A DNA stretch of 9,022 nucleotides from Puniceicoccales bacterium (lineage in GTDB: Bacteria; Verrucomicrobiota; Verrucomicrobiia; Opitutales; JAIRLG01), in assembly GCA_031288595.1 (NCBI GenBank), contig JAITRB010000009.1:1-9022 (forward strand), in the 5' to 3' direction. This document shows positions 1,051 to 7,594 of this stretch, one piece after another. Each line of letters begins with the position of its first letter. Positions within the stretch are counted from its first letter, which is position 1. The notes beneath the pieces were generated by a model. The model had not been told where the DNA came from, made no database searches, and saw only the letters and a list, made by a program, of their open reading frames with translations. The translations under genes and the position numbers were made by a program.

Positions 1051-3702
1051 ATGAGAGAAAGTTCACGAGATAGAGAGCATCGGCTCAACCCAAGGGCCCG
1101 GGTGATCGGGCTCAGCCGGCGGCCAGCCATTGCTAAACTCATCACCTGCAGCTTTGTCCTCATCCTCTCCAGCGCCCAAGCCGAGTGGCCTAGCCCCGTG
1201 CTCCGATACGTGGAGCGGCAGTCTTCGGTGGAGACTGGATTCTGGAGAAGGGCAGGGCTTGCCTCGCCCAGCCAGGCCTGCTTCTCTCCAGCCCTTCAGC
1301 TCTCCTCAGCGGAAAAAGAGATGGAAGAGGCCCTCTGCGACCTCATCCCGCTGAAAGGCCCATGGCCTGCAGCAGCTGTGCAGAACGAGCTCCCGAGAAT
1401 CCTGACATGGCTGGAGTCGCTCGTCTCTAGCCCAGAACAGCTCGATGCCCAGGAAAGGTTCCTCCGCGATTCGCTGCCACTCCTCCGAATCCTCACCCGC
1501 CTGTTCCATTTCGAGGAACGTTCTATTCTGAATGTCCGGCAAGTCGAAAGGGCGAGAATCCTGGCCTCGACCGAGCGCATTCCCAACGATCTCGGGGTTC
1601 TGGATGCCCTTCGGAATCTACTTCCGCTCTGGCTCGCGCACTACCGCGATCAAAGGACTCGATGGAAGGTCCAGATGCCAGTGCTCTCGGAGGCCTTCCA
1701 GCAAGCACTCTGGGCCTCTCATCCCTCCGCCGATGCCCGGGCCTTCATCCCACTAGAGGAGTGGTACATCCGCCTCCACAGCCTGCAGGAAGCCGTAATC
1801 GATCCGCTCGCCACCGCCCAGGGCCACCGCCGATCCCCTCTCCGCAAAACCCATCGCCGGCTAGCCCTGAAGCAAGAGGCAGGCAAGTACCACCAGGTAT
1901 GCCTGGTTCAGGACGAAGGGGGGATGGACTGGGTGCTCAAGGTCTTCCATTTCCAGGAACACGCGGGTGGCTACGTCAGCAGCGGTGTTCTGCCGCAGCT
2001 GTCCCACCTCATCGGGCGCAACGTTTTCAGTTACCGGCTGGGCGAGTGGCTTTGCCCGGGCATGCCTGTCCCGACATGGCCCTGCCTCATACCGGCCAGC
2101 GGCGATGGCAGAACCCTTGCCTTGGGCATACGGATGGCCAGGGCCCGCGGTCTGCCCTTCAGCCACTACTGGAAGCCGAGGGACACAACCCATCCCCAGT
2201 TGGCCCGAATAGAAGTCCACCGCAGGCGGTGCCTGTTCCTTCTGAACCAGATCGCGGGAGAAGGAGCCGAGGGCAACATTTCCCGTGCTTCCTCATCCAG
2301 CAGAGAGCTGCAGGAGCTTTTCATCTCCGACGACGATGTGGTTCAAGAAGGTCTGCGAAAGCGCTGGCAGGGTCTCGGGGGCGATTTGAGGCGCTCGCTC
2401 TTGAAGGACTGGAAGAGCTACGTTACCGAGATGAAGGCCCTGCGGCAGCGGCTCCGGCCGGGAGCGCTCGTCCGCAACCTCATCCGCCTACAGTGGCTGG
2501 ACGCACTGCTCTTCCAGGGCGACCGCCATTACTGTAATTTCTACATCGAGCCAGAGGCCTCCTACAGGCTCCAGCTGATCGACCAGGATCAGTGCCTCGG
2601 GCCCCTTGATCCCCGGGCCTCCTGCGACGTCTTTCCCCAAAAAGACTTCGAGCGGCAGATGAGCGTGCGGACTGAGAGCTACTTCGGCCATGGCGGCTCG
2701 AGCGTCGCCGAATGCTGGGCCCGCCATGGGGGAAAGTCCATCGCCCCCCTGCCCCCGTTCATCGACGCCTCGACGGCCTTCCATTTCAGATGTTGCCGCT
2801 CGGAGAGCCTGGAAGCCCTGGCCGATGGCTGGCTCCTTCCCCTGGAAATCGCCGCGCTCCGGCGGCGCCTGCGGGCCCTGCAGCGATTCCTCACGCAGTT
2901 GCGGCGGCACGGACGGGTATTGCCCGATGACCCAAATGTCTGGGAAAATCCCAAAATCCTCGCCCAACTGGAACGGCCCGATCCTGCTCTGCCCGACCCC
3001 ATTTTTCCTAACCCCATGCGCAAGCGGGATATCGACCGAGCTGAGGATGCCTGTGAGGCCCGGATGCTCACCTGTTACCAGAAGCTCTGTCGAGAACGGG
3101 AGCGAGAGTGGAGGATATTCCTAAACCTCTCGGTCTGCTTTGACGTCCTGCGGAACCTGAAGGTCGGAGCCGGGGCCGATGCTGAGGGGAGGGATAGGGG
3201 GTTGTGGGGCGATGGCCCGGCTGCGGAGACGCGGGCAGGATGCCCGCGGCTCCGCAGACCCCGGCCTTTTTCTCGAAAAAGGCCGACTTTCTCCGAAAGG
3301 GGCCATCGCCCCAAAAATCAAAACCAATCCCCTAAACCCATGCTTGACGCCGCCCTTCAAAGCACTAGCCCTTCCGTACATCCATGCTCAAGACCAAAAA
3401 ATCCATCGCCAAGCGCTTCAAGTTCACAGGCAGGGGCAAGGTGCTGCGCCGCAGCGCTGGGTACCGCCACTTCCTGCGCAACCGGAGCGTCAAGCAGTGC
3501 CGGGCCGCCCATCGGGACCATCCGGTCTCGGCGGGATTCCGGAAGCAGATTCTGCGGGCGGTGGCGGTCGGACTTTAGGATATTTTCTGATCCACCGCGG
3601 GGAAAAGCGACAGGTCGGATCTCACAGCAGGACGAAAGGAGAAGCACATGCCAAGAGCGACCCATGCAGGAGCAACCCATCGGCGCCGAAGAAGGATGCT
3701 GA
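1051..3702 (+). CDS. Large hypothetical protein with an N-terminal Sec/Tat-like signal peptide and a central PI3K/PI4K-like atypical-kinase signature; the last ~500 nt of the ORF are probably not genuine coding sequence
   Basis: 883-codon ORF with high third-position GC up to about nt 3150. N-terminus LSRRPAIAKLITCSFVLILSSAQA|EWP is an RR-containing n-region, a hydrophobic core and an AxA site. Alternative starts are GTG 1102 or ATG 1321; the latter is preceded by GGAAAAAGAG. Motifs: WVLK (K at 1939-1941), WLDALLFQGDRHYCNFYI (2518-2538 core) and LIDQDQ (2578-2589). After ~3160 the translation becomes low-complexity (RPRPFSRKRP...) and overlaps a structured repeat, rpmI and the rplT start. Confidence 0.6.
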   Translation: MRESSRDREHRLNPRARVIGLSRRPAIAKLITCSFVLILSSAQAEWPSPVLRYVERQSSVETGFWRRAGLASPSQACFSPALQLSSAEKEMEEALCDLIPLKGPWPAAAVQNELPRILTWLESLVSSPEQLDAQERFLRDSLPLLRILTRLFHFEERSILNVRQVERARILASTERIPNDLGVLDALRNLLPLWLAHYRDQRTRWKVQMPVLSEAFQQALWASHPSADARAFIPLEEWYIRLHSLQEAVIDPLATAQGHRRSPLRKTHRRLALKQEAGKYHQVCLVQDEGGMDWVLKVFHFQEHAGGYVSSGVLPQLSHLIGRNVFSYRLGEWLCPGMPVPTWPCLIPASGDGRTLALGIRMARARGLPFSHYWKPRDTTHPQLARIEVHRRRCLFLLNQIAGEGAEGNISRASSSSRELQELFISDDDVVQEGLRKRWQGLGGDLRRSLLKDWKSYVTEMKALRQRLRPGALVRNLIRLQWLDALLFQGDRHYCNFYIEPEASYRLQLIDQDQCLGPLDPRASCDVFPQKDFERQMSVRTESYFGHGGSSVAECWARHGGKSIAPLPPFIDASTAFHFRCCRSESLEALADGWLLPLEIAALRRRLRALQRFLTQLRRHGRVLPDDPNVWENPKILAQLERPDPALPDPIFPNPMRKRDIDRAEDACEARMLTCYQKLCREREREWRIFLNLSVCFDVLRNLKVGAGADAEGRDRGLWGDGPAAETRAGCPRLRRPRPFSRKRPTFSERGHRPKNQNQSPKPMLDAALQSTSPSVHPCSRPKNPSPSASSSQAGARCCAAALGTATSCATGASSSAGPPIGTIRSRRDSGSRFCGRWRSDFRIFSDPPRGKATGRISQQDERRSTCQERPMQEQPIGAEEGC
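3206..3312 (+). repeat. Four-way-junction structured element, sequence-diverged member (E3), 71 nt upstream of rpmI
   Basis: Perfect 12-bp outer stem GGGGCGATGGCC (3206-3217) / GGCCATCGCCCC (3301-3312). It encloses hairpin 3221-3257 (16 bp, one A/G mismatch, loop GGA), hairpin 3263-3284 (GGCCTTTTT/AAAAAGGCC, loop CTCG) and hairpin 3287-3299 (CTTTC/GAAAG). The order long-medium-short matches 5629-5737. The 5' flank GATAGGGGG-TTGTGGGGCGATGGC resembles the copy-2 flank GATAGGGGCAGGGTATTTTGTGGGACATGGC. Confidence 0.6.
3384..3578 (+). CDS. rpmI: 50S ribosomal protein L35
   Basis: 64 aa: MLKTKKSIAKRFKFTGRGKVLRRSAGYRHFLRNRS... This is the typical basic L35 sequence (KRFK.TG.GK), placed immediately upstream of rplT. 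An in-frame stop at 3366-3368 fixes ATG 3384 as the start. No Shine-Dalgarno sequence is visible. Confidence 0.9.
   Translation: MLKTKKSIAKRFKFTGRGKVLRRSAGYRHFLRNRSVKQCRAAHRDHPVSAGFRKQILRAVAVGL
3635..3641 (+). promoter_or_regulatory. Shine-Dalgarno sequence for rplT
   Basis: AAAGGAG lies 6 nt upstream of ATG 3648. Confidence 0.7.
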
Positions 3703-4174: not shown

Positions 4175-5521
4175 ATGTCCGATGAAGATGAGCGCCGGAA
4201 GGCCCTGATCGAGCACCTCTTCGCCCAGGCAGAGCGCAACCGGGTGGTCGGACAAGCAGAGGAAAGGGAGGGTCATCCTCGGACCCAGGCGCTCTCCTCC
4301 TTTTCGGAATCGCCGAGCGCATCGTCTTCCCCGGAAGACTTGGAGGAAGAGCTGAGAAGGCGACTTCAGCAGTTGGGCATAGATGAGGGTCTGCGCCAGT
4401 CGCTGGCGGAAGTCATGGCCTCGCTGACACCCGGCTCGCCGCTCCAGGGGATCATCGCCCAGTATTTGAAAGAATATCCCATGGATGAACTCATTTCCCA
4501 GGCCCAGCAGGAGCTAGCCAGCGTCCATAAGCGTTCGGATTGGGAGAGCTGCAAGGCGCGTTTCCTAGGCCCTCAGGGACCGCTACGCGCACTCGTCAAA
4601 AACATCCAGGCCCAGGCACCGGAGCAGCGGCCGGCCTTCGGCCAGAGGATCAATGCGATCAAGACTGCTCTCGAAGAGCTGTTCAGCCGCAAGCGGCAGG
4701 AACTGGAGCGGGAAGCCAGGCAGCGTCAGCTCCCGCCTCCCATCGATATCACGCTCCGCCCACGGTTGGCAGCTAATGGCACCCTCCATCCCCTGACACG
4801 CCTGCGCCGGCGCATCGACGCGATTTTCCAGCGCTTGGGCTATACCCTTACCGAGGGCAGTGAGATCGAAACCGAATGGTTCTGCTTCGACGCTCTGAAC
4901 ACGCCGCCCGAGCATCCGGCCCGGGATGAGCAGGATACCTTCTACCTTCCGCGGGATCTGGAGCTCGGCAACGTCCCTCGCCGGCGGGAGGGTGAGAGGG
5001 GTGAGCGCTACATCCTGCGTTCCCAAACCTCGACAGTGCAGATCCGCACGATGCTGGCGGAAAATCCGCCCCTCCGCATCGTCTCCCCAGGCCGTGTCTT
5101 CCGGCGAGATACGAACGACGCAACCCACAGCGCGAACTTCCATCAGTATGAGGGGCTCTACGTTGACCGAAAGCTCACGGTGGCTGACCTGAAGAACACG
5201 CTCTTCTTCTTCCTCCAGGAGCTTTTGGGAGCCCCTCTGCAGATGCGCCTGCGGCCGAGCTTTTTCCCCTTCACCGAGCCTAGTTTCGAGCTGGATATCT
5301 GCTCTCCCTCGCTGGGCAAGCTCAGCGGACAGTGGGTGGAGATCATCGGTTGCGGCTTGGTCGATCCGGATGTATTTCGGGCCGTGGACTACGATCCGGA
5401 GCAATGGACAGGCTTTGCCTTCGCCCTAGGCTTAGAGCGCGTCGCGATGTTCTTCTACGGCGTCGACGATATCCGGCACTTTTACCGCAACGACTGGCGA
5501 TTCCTTCAACAGTTCGCCTGA
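4175..5521 (+). CDS. pheS: Phenylalanine--tRNA ligase alpha subunit, with an apparent ~100-aa N-terminal extension (alternative canonical-length start at ATG 4481)
   Basis: Class II aaRS motifs: GRVFRRDTNDATHSANFHQYEGL (motif 2 region) and GFAFALGLERVAMF (motif 3). A PheS-typical N-terminal coiled coil begins at MDELISQAQQEL (4481). Codons 4175-4480 keep the same frame and a GC-rich third position. Confidence 0.9.
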   Translation: MSDEDERRKALIEHLFAQAERNRVVGQAEEREGHPRTQALSSFSESPSASSSPEDLEEELRRRLQQLGIDEGLRQSLAEVMASLTPGSPLQGIIAQYLKEYPMDELISQAQQELASVHKRSDWESCKARFLGPQGPLRALVKNIQAQAPEQRPAFGQRINAIKTALEELFSRKRQELEREARQRQLPPPIDITLRPRLAANGTLHPLTRLRRRIDAIFQRLGYTLTEGSEIETEWFCFDALNTPPEHPARDEQDTFYLPRDLELGNVPRRREGERGERYILRSQTSTVQIRTMLAENPPLRIVSPGRVFRRDTNDATHSANFHQYEGLYVDRKLTVADLKNTLFFFLQELLGAPLQMRLRPSFFPFTEPSFELDICSPSLGKLSGQWVEIIGCGLVDPDVFRAVDYDPEQWTGFAFALGLERVAMFFYGVDDIRHFYRNDWRFLQQFA

Positions 5522-5628
5522 AAACTTGCCCTATTTTTCCGCCGGTCGTGCAAAGCCAAAGGTCCGCATCGGACGGACATTGCCGAAGCCAGTTCTGTCA
5601 GATAGGGGCAGGGTATTTTGTGGGACAT

Positions 5629-5737
5629 GGCGCTGTCTTTGCAACGCAGGAGGGGAAAGGGCCCGAAGGCTCCTTTCCCCTCCTGCGTTGCAGGCCCGCC
5701 CCACGGGCCGCTCCCGAAGGGAGCCAAAGACAGCGCC
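5629..5737 (+). repeat. Four-way-junction structured repeat, copy 2
   Basis: Perfect 13-bp terminal inverted repeat GGCGCTGTCTTTG (5629-5641) / CAAAGACAGCGCC (5725-5737). It encloses a long hairpin 5642-5690 (19 bp plus a GCC/GGC extension), a hairpin 5693-5709 (GGCCCG/CGGGCC) and a hairpin 5710-5724 (GCTCCC/GGGAGC). It is homologous to the reverse complement of 851-951. Confidence 0.85.
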
Positions 5738-5901
5738 AACAAGCCTACAGGCCCCAAGCATTCACCCAGCTGCCAAGACCTAGAGCCGTCGCTCCTGATC
5801 ACTCTCACTTCCACCTATCCGGAGCCGATGTTCTCGGAGGGGGTGGCCGTGCAGCGGAATCGCTGTTGACGCAGGGAGAATATTTTGCTCCCTGACAGGG
5901 C

Positions 5902-6351: not shown

Positions 6352-7364
6352 GCCATGTCCTGCCGCCGGAGATCAAGACCTCGGCAGCACTGGAGGAGGA
6401 ACTAGCCGAAACTTACCGGCGCTTCCATCTCTCGGCGGGGCGCCTGGAGCTGATGAGCGGTATCCGCGAGCGTCGCCTCTGGCCGCCCGGGATGCTCGCT
6501 TCGCAAGCGAGCGGCTGCGCCGCTCAGGCCCTTTTCAAGGGCCATCCCGGGCTGGCCCGGGACGAAATCGACCTCTTGATCCACGCCGCCGTCTGCCGTG
6601 ACCGCCTGGAGCCCGCCACTGCCTCCTACGTCCATAAGCTCCTCTCGCTTTCTCCTCAGGCCCAAGCCTTCGATCTATCCAATGCCTGTCTGGGGGTGCT
6701 CAATGCCCTGTGGCTGGCGGCCAGCCAGATTGAAAGTGGGCAGATCCGATCAGCCCTCATCGTTTCCGGCGAGAACAGCCGACCGCTGCTGGAATCGACG
6801 CTGCGGGAATCGAGGAGCCTCTCCCTCGACCGGCAGCAGTTCAAGCGCCTTTTTGCCAACCTGAGCCTCGGCTCCGGGGCCGTCGCCCTGCTCCTGTCTC
6901 CCTGCTCCGCCGCACCGGAGGCCCCCCGTCTCGTCGCCGCCTCCGCCCTGGCGGACACCGAGGCCTGCCGGCTCTGCGAGGGTGGGGTAGCCGCAGATGC
7001 CTCCTGGCAGATGCTGACTGAATCCGAGGCCCTGCTGCAGGCTGGCATCGACCTGGCCCGACGCAACTGGCACAATTTTCTCCGGCTGACCCGCTGGGAA
7101 CCCAGCACCATCCAGCACTTTCTCACCCACCAGGTAGGCCAACGCCACCGGACCTTGCTCTATGGAGCCCTCGGGCTGGAAATTTCAAAGGATTTCTCGA
7201 CCTTTCCCTTCCTGGGCAATACCGGTTCCTCCGCGCTGCCCATGACTCTCTCCATCGCGTGGGAACAAGGGCGCTTCCATCCCGGAGATCGCGTAGCGCT
7301 TCTCGGCATTGGCAGCGGATTGCATTCCATAATCCTGGGTCTCGAGTTTCCGCAGCTCCCGTAA
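6312..7364 (+). CDS. 3-oxoacyl-ACP synthase III (KAS III / FabH-like, thiolase-fold condensing enzyme) family protein
   Basis: 350 aa. Catalytic-triad contexts typical of KAS III: FDLSNACLG (Cys), FLTHQVG (His) and GNTGSSALPMTL (Asn), plus SGIRERR near the N-terminus. The HQVG/ACLG variants suggest a FabH paralogue rather than housekeeping FabH. Confidence 0.85.
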   Translation: MQASFSHVALRTLSHVLPPEIKTSAALEEELAETYRRFHLSAGRLELMSGIRERRLWPPGMLASQASGCAAQALFKGHPGLARDEIDLLIHAAVCRDRLEPATASYVHKLLSLSPQAQAFDLSNACLGVLNALWLAASQIESGQIRSALIVSGENSRPLLESTLRESRSLSLDRQQFKRLFANLSLGSGAVALLLSPCSAAPEAPRLVAASALADTEACRLCEGGVAADASWQMLTESEALLQAGIDLARRNWHNFLRLTRWEPSTIQHFLTHQVGQRHRTLLYGALGLEISKDFSTFPFLGNTGSSALPMTLSIAWEQGRFHPGDRVALLGIGSGLHSIILGLEFPQLP

Positions 7365-7412: not shown

Positions 7413-7489
7413 TGGTCGGGATGACTGGATTCGAACCAGCGACATCTACGTCCCGAACGTAGCGCTCTGCCAGGCTGAGCTACATCCCG
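7413..7489 (-). tRNA. tRNA-Pro (anticodon CGG), CCA encoded
   Basis: Reverse complement: CGGGATGTAGCTCAGCCTGGCAGAGCGCTACGTTCGGGACGTAGATGTCGCTGGTTCGAATCCAGTCATCCCGACCA. Acceptor stem CGGGATG/CATCCCG, anticodon stem CTACG/CGTAG with loop TTCGGGA, T-loop TTCGAAT. Confidence 0.92.
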
Positions 7490-7508
7490 CGCATGGATAT
7501 GAACGGCC

Positions 7509-7594
7509 TGGTGCCCAGGGCGGGACTCGAACCCGCACGTCCTTACGGACAAAGGATTTTAAGTCCTCAGCGTCTACCATTCCGCCACCAGGGC
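7509..7594 (-). tRNA. tRNA-Leu (anticodon UAA), long variable arm, CCA encoded
   Basis: Reverse complement: GCCCTGGTGGCGGAATGGTAGACGCTGAGGACTTAAAATCCTTTGTCCGTAAGGACGTGCGGGTTCGAGTCCCGCCCTGGGCACCA. Anticodon loop CTTAAAA, 15-nt variable arm, T-arm GCGGG-TTCGAGT-CCCGC. The acceptor stem has one U5:U68 mismatch. Confidence 0.9.

Follow-up and report, generated by a model that had tools for sequence, protein, structure and literature searches.

REP sequences are single imperfect palindromes of 20-40 nt that carry a GTAG or CGTC tag at one end (PMC3733652). GTAG-tagged REPs are reported to be abundant in the verrucomicrobium Opitutus terrae, and the roles proposed for REPs are mRNA 3' stabilisation, termination, supercoiling or protein binding (PMC3733652, PMC2817692). 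The window analysed here, a stretch of 9,022 nucleotides from a Puniceicoccales-like bacterium of the termite gut, contains junction-shaped elements that resemble REP/BIME repeats: as dispersed intergenic palindromes they mostly follow the 3' ends of genes, can point either way, show strand symmetry and fall into subfamilies that are homogenised within a genome. They differ in their length of 76-125 nt, in the three hairpins enclosed by an outer stem and in the missing GTAG/CGTC tag. The element upstream of rpmI, on which we focus, has 107 nt and four helices with neither GTAG nor CGTC at either end, and does not fit the definition of a single tagged REP hairpin.

Another host-associated bacterium offers a second comparison, as the Rickettsia palindromic elements (RPE) reportedly form a repeat family that can sit in frame within genes. 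Similarly, one junction of the window lies in an OleA-like gene, and the open reading frame upstream reads through junction copies of types A and B. The RPE are nevertheless unrelated in sequence and fold, and the in-gene junction adds no extra length. The position of the element also recalls the L20 leader (Rfam RF00558) and the translational operator of E. coli rpmI, which are likewise strongly structured and located upstream of the L35-L20 genes. In L20 operators, the sites that mimic the protein's target need irregular loops. The element departs from these systems in that it does not match the leader model, is probably located upstream of the promoter, is not specific to this operon and contains no irregular helix mimicking H40-H41 of the 23S rRNA.

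Bacterial MITEs such as Correia, ERIC and the Coxiella QMITEs are similar to the junction elements in their size of about 100 nt, their terminal inverted repeats and strong fold, as well as in presence/absence polymorphism and in the overlap of gene ends with altered protein C-termini (PMC10969869, PMC5896051, PMC3184786). Unlike MITEs, the junction elements have neither a visible target-site duplication nor a known parent IS, and their interior is made up of three autonomous perfect hairpins that change in sequence yet keep their structure. In mitochondrial double-hairpin elements, GC clusters and repetitive hairpin-forming elements, all of them small and mobile, a conserved multi-hairpin structure and not the sequence likewise defines the element, which resides in spacers and sometimes in genes; these elements are organellar, belong to a different host lineage and have two hairpins and no enclosing stem (PMC4478555, PMC2800124). 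A literature search that included repeat reviews (terms 'junction' and 'cloverleaf') returned no description of junction-shaped bacterial repeats, and the four-way-junction architecture appears to be undescribed.

Structure of the element upstream of rpmI

The element spans positions 3205-3313 on the forward strand, as defined by folding and by a full-length match to the covariance model of type A described below. A previous sequence-only reading had placed it at 3206-3312, to which we add one base pair at each end of the outer stem. The perfect 12-bp outer stem of that reading is present as described, with GGGGCGATGGCC (3206-3217) paired to GGCCATCGCCCC (3301-3312), and it reaches 14 bp via T3205-A3313 and C3218-G3300, which gives a 5' arm TGGGGCGATGGCCC (3205-3218) and a 3' arm GGGCCATCGCCCCA (3300-3313). 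Three hairpins are enclosed, with only 0-1 unpaired bases between helices. The long hairpin (3219-3260) has 2+8+8 bp, 18 bp altogether, with a GGA loop, a one-base bulge and one A/G mismatch; the medium hairpin CGGCCTTTTT / AAAAAGGCCG (3262-3285) has 10 bp and a CTCG loop; and the short hairpin CTTTC-TCC-GAAAG (3287-3299) has 5 bp and a TCC loop. From the 16-, 9- and 5-bp hairpins proposed earlier, the shortest was recovered unchanged and the longest corresponds to the 8+8 core of the 18-bp hairpin, whereas the 9-bp stem has to be replaced by one of 10 bp. An A-run (3313-3317) is located at the 3' end of the structure. The element runs into AAAAA on the forward strand and into ACAACCCCC on the reverse strand; an A-run (5-8 A) follows every type B copy at all loci.

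Folding of 3196-3322 with RNAfold gave a minimum free energy of -87.6 kcal/mol, compared with -53.4 +/- 4.2 kcal/mol for 200 dinucleotide shuffles, none of which was as good (z = -8.25). Relatives are designated here by L numbers. The 5' arm of the outer stem has the same sequence in L002 and L003 and shows a compensatory G:C to A:T change in L005 and L131. The long hairpin is a variable module, for which L005 has a wholly different sequence (GTTGGCTCATCC/GGATGAGCCAAC) that still forms a clean hairpin, and other hairpin sequences replace the medium hairpin in L002 and L005. The short hairpin is part of a conserved core and is unchanged in both copies of L003 and in L005. When type B elements from the window's clade and from the L005 clade are aligned with MAFFT, the result misrepresents the structure of the long and medium hairpins, and counts were taken from the outer stem and the short hairpin only. 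The four-way-junction structure at 3205-3313 is real. Junction elements contain 0-2 G-U pairs among 28-52 pairs each, and the folding energies of their strands lie less than 5 kcal/mol apart; stems of almost pure Watson-Crick pairing and the equal folding of both strands suggest a palindrome that exists at the DNA level.

A family of junction repeats in termite-gut Puniceicoccales

The junctions sort into three sequence types (A, B and C) that share one architecture, in which an outer stem of 10-14 bp closes three hairpins. Besides the type B element, the window contains two type A elements, namely copy 1 at 851-951 in reverse orientation (covariance model, 108 bits) and copy 2 at 5628-5738 on the forward strand (100 bits), and a type C four-way junction at 6481-6557 on the forward strand, in frame within an OleA/FabH-like coding sequence. 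The latter segment aligns to OleA without a large insertion, and its nucleotide identity is no higher than that of the adjacent coding sequence. Members of the family are dispersed and extragenic, mostly located after gene 3' ends. Loci of the clade hold 31 strict junctions in 81.9 kb (about 3.8 per 10 kb), compared with none in 33 kb of the outgroup Puniceicoccaceae and seven in 648 kb of unrelated GC-rich contigs (0.11 per 10 kb). The architecture is thus about 35-fold enriched in the termite-gut clade. As a background control we used 120 loci matched by a metagenome scan with GCGATGGCCCN{60,90}GGGCCATCGC; among the at least 120 matches listed none was type B, and they are chance matches and unrelated palindromes. 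Viral contigs scanned for types A and B gave no match.

How the rpmI-upstream element relates to copies 1 and 2 was assessed with a covariance model built from 12 type A copies. The model matched the element over its full length with 24.2 bits on the forward strand (E about 2e-3) and with 9.7 bits on the reverse strand, while the best background score in 534 kb of unrelated and outgroup DNA was 20.7 bits. When reverse-complemented, type A copies score 29-38 bits, which indicates that the 24.2-bit signal reflects architecture and not sequence homology. The long-medium-short order noted earlier is indeed that of copy 2, copy 1 having the opposite order, and the element interior is, as had been remarked, unrelated to both copies. 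Membership in a shared four-way-junction family, as first proposed, is therefore upheld for the architecture and not for common ancestry with copies 1 and 2. The supposed kinship of the 5' flank to that of copy 2 turned out to be weak: the local alignment scores 20 against 13.7 +/- 2.4 for shuffled sequence, 51 of 2000 shuffles reach as good a score (marginal, p about 0.03), and other type A copies lack that flank. The window has just two occurrences of GATAGGGG, at 3193 and 5601, both immediately 5' of an element. On sequence grounds, the element can be assigned to a subfamily separate from copies 1 and 2, and its likeness to them would be architectural.

Type B is a multi-copy sequence that adjoins unrelated genes, with private variants common to the copies within one genome. 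It lies next to tRNA-Leu in L002 and L003, while the tRNA-Leu of the window has no copy, and in the MAG that contains L002 it also follows a pyrG-like gene on the 3' side. GTCGAC..GCCGAC is common to the two type B copies of L002, and GTCTGC..GCAGAC to those of L003. An exact-pattern scan found at least three type B copies in MAG bin38 and one in bin136, numbers that are lower bounds given the fragmentary MAGs. No element lies in the rplT-pheS spacer of the window, and L002 and L003 have elements there at differing positions; together with the tRNA-Leu site and the type C site after copy 2, this spacer illustrates that presence varies between relatives, with flanks too diverged for clean empty sites. 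The contigs L128 and L132 break within elements.

The rpmI-upstream site across relatives

A junction element is present in the spacer between the upstream gene and rpmI in all nine clade lineages, and the outgroups, which are free-living relatives (Cerasicoccus and one other), have no element upstream of rpmI. Six of the nine carry type B: the window, L002 and L003 (clade W), and L005, L131 and L132 (clade Y). The remaining three, L004, L130 and L135 (clade X), carry type A in reverse orientation. Protein identities suggest the tree (W,(X,Y)), according to which type B upstream of rpmI would be ancestral. Its core (outer stem, short hairpin and A-run) is identical at about 30 of 32 positions between the window and L005, and the rest of the spacer is unalignable; this contrast looks like sequence-specific selection at the rpmI locus.

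The element is followed by rpmI (L35; 3384-3578, forward strand; Pfam PF01632, E = 1.3e-12) and rplT (L20; 3648-4031, forward strand; PF00453, E = 3.3e-39); the ATG of rpmI at 3384 agrees with the distance of 71 nt given previously. Conservation draws attention to a promoter-like motif, TTGACG-N16-TAGCCC (3344-3371, forward strand), between the element and rpmI. In eight of eight aligned lineages, CTTGACG is invariant and the spacing CTTGACG-N16/17-TA is fixed in this interval. A strict sigma-70 consensus scan did not call the motif and found no consensus promoter at the element. We regard the motif as a candidate rpmI promoter, and the element appears to lie upstream of the rpmI-rplT promoter, in which case it is probably not an L20-sensing leader of these genes.

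On its other side, the element borders a clade-specific gene of about 700 aa, whose open reading frame (1051-3702, forward strand) has no stop before 3702 and reads through the element. The same sequence is present in a Logan contig (L001, run SRR14710895) with one base differing in 4188, a contig that may not be an independent sample. The conserved part of the protein stops near 3150, and Pfam and PDB sequence searches with it gave no match. In clade X the stop codon of the upstream gene lies inside the element, which means that ribosomes must open it. An intrinsic terminator scan of 2900-3700 found none, and the run that follows the element consists of A rather than U, so that it is not a canonical terminator.

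Competing explanations and significance

The element is most likely a structured repeat of the REP/BIME or MITE kind. We consider it reasonably probable that it is a type B member of a lineage-specific palindromic repeat superfamily whose host role, if any, is generic punctuation, and that it is not an L20 leader. The superfamily would consist of strand-symmetric, palindrome-built repeats that form near-perfect four-way junctions in spacers between transcription units of termite-gut Puniceicoccales. At rpmI, the element would precede the promoter, lie at the upstream gene's 3' end or overlap it, and have no effect as an RNA leader on the synthesis of L35 and L20. A role for the host, if there is one, would most likely be a generic, orientation-independent punctuation of the upstream transcription unit; as proposed for REP/BIME, the element might provide a highly stable 3' structure, act as a roadblock or insulator, or offer a site to a junction-binding protein. 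The palindromes may be kept perfect by DNA-level processes such as copying between copies and intrastrand template switching. Less easily accommodated are the so far low copy number of type B, the lack of target-site duplications, the core conserved between the window and L005, the ancestral state suggested for type B at rpmI, the A-run in place of a U-run, and the clade X stop codon within the element.

A purely selfish, MITE-like mobile DNA is possible, if the less favoured account. The outer stem would then represent terminal inverted repeats, to which the 12-14 bp stem of the rpmI-upstream element is equivalent, the subterminal hairpins would be recognised by a transposase or recombinase acting in trans, and the rpmI copy would be functionless in a tolerant spacer. 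This accords with presence/absence differences among close relatives, with both orientations, with conserved termini around a variable interior, with contigs that break inside elements and with copies homogenised within a genome. It is at odds with the lack of a flanking direct repeat at 25 inspected copies, with the lack of an autonomous partner within roughly 80 kb of clade sequence, with only one element between divergent genes, and with an rpmI-upstream site filled in every lineage while other sites are patchy. More speculatively, and in our estimate rather improbably, junction repeats might be a structure-defined class of mobile or convertible DNA that spreads or homogenises via a folded single strand recognised by its shape. 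The rpmI site would have been held since the clade ancestor, with types replacing each other, as an orientation-independent operon insulator, and such repeats could overlie coding sequence, as in the OleA-like gene.

Alternatively, the core of an ancestral, locus-specific cis element could bind a protein and act on the rpmI promoter as DNA or on the upstream mRNA at its 3' end, with the extra clade W copies being secondary. The core is near-identical between clades W and Y despite about 68% PheS identity and unalignable spacers, a single type B copy was found in the clade Y MAG, and the second clade W copy is also upstream of a translation-machinery operon, with tRNA-Leu/Pro. We nonetheless judge this reading unlikely, given that clade X has type A of unrelated sequence, reversed, in its place, that the tRNA copy is inverted relative to the downstream gene and that a third copy lies 3' of the pyrG-like gene; the copy numbers invoked are, moreover, lower bounds from fragmentary MAGs.

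The initial proposal of a leader for rpmI-rplT, considered here as an RNA that imitates the binding site on 23S rRNA and lets L20 (or L35) regulate its own synthesis, in the manner of E. coli and Bacillus, could appeal to the strong structure 71 nt upstream of rpmI and to an orthologous site conserved in six lineages. It was not borne out and is now very improbable. For the element, Rfam 15 gave no match to L20_leader or any other family at the gathering threshold, and none to L20_leader or a ribosomal leader at E <= 10 in 3100-3700; on the hairpins it returned microRNA-type noise only. The conserved promoter-like motif is downstream of the element, type B also occurs at tRNA-Leu and pyrG-like loci outside ribosomal-protein operons, the sister clade X has the other type in opposite orientation, and Cerasicoccus and the other outgroup lack the element. 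Its helices are perfect, without internal loops that could mimic the rRNA site of the protein, and folding is equally good on either strand. A small structured RNA gene, tRNA-like or otherwise non-coding, is hardly credible: its cloverleaf-like shape, multiple copies and compensatory changes are outweighed by the absence of an ARAGORN or Rfam match (these tools find only tRNA-Pro and tRNA-Leu, at 7413-7594, and a tRNA or tmRNA identity is rejected), of an own promoter or terminator and of conserved unpaired nucleotides, by almost no G-U pairs and symmetric folding of the strands, and by the overlapping upstream coding sequence, which reads through in the window and stops inside the element in L004, L130 and L135. 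The fallback of the sequence-only reading, a repeat insertion or else a terminator or insulator of the upstream gene, fits the evidence better than the leader.

For annotation, this means that a striking structure beside rpmI-rplT is very probably not a ribosomal-protein leader, and a false riboswitch or leader call is avoided. The family also explains contig breaks in these MAGs, spurious open reading frames and odd protein C-termini at element sites. It is an unusual bacterial repeat, in which sequence-unrelated subfamilies share one architecture and which reaches a very high density in a host-associated lineage, while free-living relatives have none. The rpmI-upstream site has been occupied throughout the history of the clade, and one copy is superimposed on coding sequence. 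Should a structure-specific protein prove to mobilise or bind the repeats, they would provide a tractable system for genetic elements that are defined by the shape of DNA or RNA, not by sequence.

The junction fold and its sequence types

Folding of the window at 3205-3313 yields a near-perfect four-way junction, in which an outer stem (TGGGGCGATGGCCC / GGGCCATCGCCCCA, 3205-3218 / 3300-3313) encloses a long hairpin (3219-3260; 2+8+8 bp with one bulge and one A/G mismatch), a medium hairpin (3262-3285; 10 bp) and a short hairpin (3287-3299; 5 bp), with only 0-1 unpaired bases at the junction. At -87.6 kcal/mol, against -53.4 +/- 4.2 for shuffled sequences (z = -8.25), this fold lies far beyond chance. 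The sequence-only reading had proposed such a structure, and folding confirms it with slightly corrected stem lengths: its 12-bp outer stem is the core of a longer one. The hairpin order does match that of copy 2 (5628-5738), as had been claimed, and is opposite to that of copy 1 (851-951).

A screen for such junctions, which required a perfectly paired outer stem of 9 bp or more, exactly three branches, no more than 8 unpaired bases at the junction and pairing of at least 75%, recovered 31 elements in 81.9 kb of clade loci, none in 33 kb of outgroup Puniceicoccaceae and 7 in 648 kb of unrelated GC-rich contigs. The elements sort into three sequence types. Type A, which includes copies 1 and 2, combines the outer stem GCGCTGTCTTTG with a conserved medium hairpin (GGCCCGC-nnn-GCGGGCC), a conserved short hairpin (GCTCCC-nnn-GGGAGC) and a hypervariable long hairpin; type B is represented by the element at 3205-3313, and type C comprises ~76 nt with three short hairpins.

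That the element and the type A copies form one family, as had been suggested, is supported at the level of architecture, but not by sequence homology. With a covariance model trained on 12 type A copies, the element scores 24.2 bits (E ~2e-3) over its full length on the + strand; the top background score, from 534 kb of outgroup and unrelated DNA, is 20.7 bits. Other type B copies reach 11-23 bits and type C copies 19-25 bits. Since type A copies score 29-38 bits even when reverse-complemented, this signal reflects shared architecture. The proposed kinship of the 5' flank with that of copy 2 is marginal (alignment p ~0.03): within the window, GATAGGGG is found at 3193 and 5601 only, and it is absent from the remaining type A copies. 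We therefore treat type B as a separate subfamily within one architectural superfamily.

Type B is not restricted to the site upstream of rpmI. Second copies adjoin tRNA-Leu/Pro genes in two relatives (L003 7490-7601; L002 ~9532-9645), where their orientation is inverted with respect to the genes downstream; the corresponding site of the window has none. When 185,579 species genomes were scanned for the exact pattern, type B turned up in two MAGs only, namely bin38, with both L002 copies and a partial one that sits at a contig end, 3' of a gene that by eye looks like CTP synthase, and bin136, with one copy (L005). Both L002 copies have one private long-hairpin variant in common and both L003 copies another, which indicates that they were copied or converted within a genome.

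The OleA/FabH-like gene contains, in frame, a type C junction of 76 nt (window 6481-6557), which encodes W-PPGMLASQASGCAAQALFKGHPG. All three sub-clades retain it (L002 7542-7628; L004 14981-15067; L135 3750-3836; L005 8777-8863), and the segment aligns with Xanthomonas OleA (PDB 3ROW) with no large insertion, so that the junction overlies native coding sequence. Near-identical copies are intergenic (L002 6571-6649; L003 5064-5142; L004 16032-16109); the window has no intergenic type C copy at ~5750.

Occupancy of the rpmI-upstream site

The window carries genes for a 5'-3' exonuclease, a clade-specific ~700-aa protein and an OleA/FabH-like thiolase, together with rpmI, rplT, pheS, a small ORF, tRNA-Pro and tRNA-Leu. 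Syntenic loci were compared from sub-clades W (the window, also seen as Logan contig L001; L002; L003), X (L004, L130, L135) and Y (L005, also seen as L006; L131; L132), and from two outgroups, Cerasicoccus arenae (L134) and one further relative (L133). The tree suggested by protein identities is (W,(X,Y)): in PheS, X and Y share 72% identity, and either of them shares 67-68% with W. PheS (window 4175-5521) carries an N-terminal extension of ~100 aa confined to the termite-gut clade (441-448 aa in total; 345-350 aa in Cerasicoccus, Ruficoccus and other Opitutales). The ~700-aa protein has homologues exclusively in termite-gut Puniceicoccales MAGs and metagenomes, and sequence searches of Pfam and PDB gave no match. 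Its motif QGDRHxxNFY ... LIDxDQCLGP (window ~2470-2650, aa ~475-530) may resemble the catalytic and activation loops of PI3/PI4-kinase-like proteins, as in effectors of intracellular bacteria.

A junction element lies between this upstream gene and rpmI in 9/9 clade lineages: type B in W and Y, and type A in reverse orientation in X (degenerate in L130). The outgroups have no element there, and their upstream gene differs (plsY). Between W and Y, the outer stem shows a G:C to A:T double change that keeps pairing, the short hairpin and A-run are almost identical, and the long and medium hairpins are wholly different in sequence, yet still clean hairpins.

Other spacers, unlike this one, are filled only patchily; that between rplT and pheS is empty in the window, whereas L002 and L003 have it occupied, at differing positions. 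L002 (4766-4931) also has a partly duplicated pheS start (CCATGTCCGATGAAC...), situated between the type A element and the true start of the gene; in L003 the homologous fragment is found on the opposite side of that genome's element, a placement that implies independent insertions or local rearrangement.

The upstream gene stops inside the element in clade X and 9 nt 5' of it in L002. In the window its ORF (1051-3702) has no stop until 3702, crossing the element, then rpmI out of frame, and running into the start of rplT; the readthrough stretch is identical in L001. Because relatives stop just before or inside their own element, the element shapes the C-terminus of the upstream protein. Window and L001 differ once in 4188 nt, at 5662 (G/C), which lies in the apical part of the copy-2 long hairpin, and the L001 variant increases copy-2 pairing (-96.5 vs -93.2 kcal/mol).

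The promoter-like motif and the L20-leader question

The last 80-100 nt before rpmI align around an invariant CTTGACG, which in 8/8 lineages is followed at a fixed spacing of 16-17 nt by a TA-initiated hexamer (window 3344-3371, downstream of the element). As the rpmI promoter this motif is putative only, since a strict consensus promoter scan does not call it.

The element is probably not the rpmI leader that the sequence-only reading had considered. Besides the downstream position of the promoter-like motif, L20-leader identity is disfavoured by the presence of elements at unrelated loci and, in clade X, of a different type in opposite orientation. Rfam gave no match to L20_leader or any other family, even at E <= 10. 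Ribosomal-protein operators, among them those for L20 in E. coli and Bacillus, use irregular loops; the helices of the element are fully paired and lack them.

In W, rpmI lacks a Shine-Dalgarno sequence, and its ATG follows a -10-like TAGC(C/T)C after only 7-12 nt (window 3366-3386), so that its mRNA may be leaderless or nearly so; in X and Y a spacer of ~25 nt carries AGGA or GGAGG. Between element and rpmI, L002 (3693-3888) and L003 (2247-2444) have 2-3 tandem units of ~60 nt, and the window one, each resembling a right-arm remnant plus A-run (ATCGCCCCAAAAAAA) followed by a promoter-like box, TTGAC(G/A)CCGCC. This suggests joint duplication of the promoter region and the element's right flank.

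Nature and possible role of the junction elements

The features of the junction elements are DNA-like rather than RNA-like. Across 25 elements, G-U pairs number 0-2 among the 28-52 pairs of each element, and the folds of the two strands differ by less than 5 kcal/mol; loops are mostly 3 nt, and both orientations relative to transcription occur. The 12 aligned type A copies show both-sided, pair-keeping changes in 17/32 consensus pairs. Such covariation is no proof of a selected RNA fold, because intrastrand template switching and inter-copy conversion can yield perfect palindromes with apparently compensatory turnover (quasipalindrome correction).

The element belongs by architecture to a multi-copy family subject to turnover, and it is most likely a REP/BIME- or MITE-like structured repeat. 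We infer that it sits where the upstream transcription unit ends, before the rpmI promoter. This spacer is constantly occupied, by one type or another and in either orientation, which hints at a role in generic punctuation: the element might form a stable 3' structure, act as a roadblock or insulator, or be bound by a junction-binding protein. A minority alternative, in which type B would be a locus-specific protein-binding element, draws on how strongly the type B core is conserved. A simple terminator is argued against by the A-run, in place of a U-run, that follows the element; a simple MITE is argued against by the absence of a target-site duplication and of a known transposase.

GTAG-tagged REPs are reported to be abundant in Opitutus terrae (PMC3733652, PMC2817692); these are single short hairpins, unlike the four-way junction described here, and no description of junction-shaped bacterial repeats was found in the literature searched. 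The family of junction elements is of greater interest than the single element upstream of rpmI.
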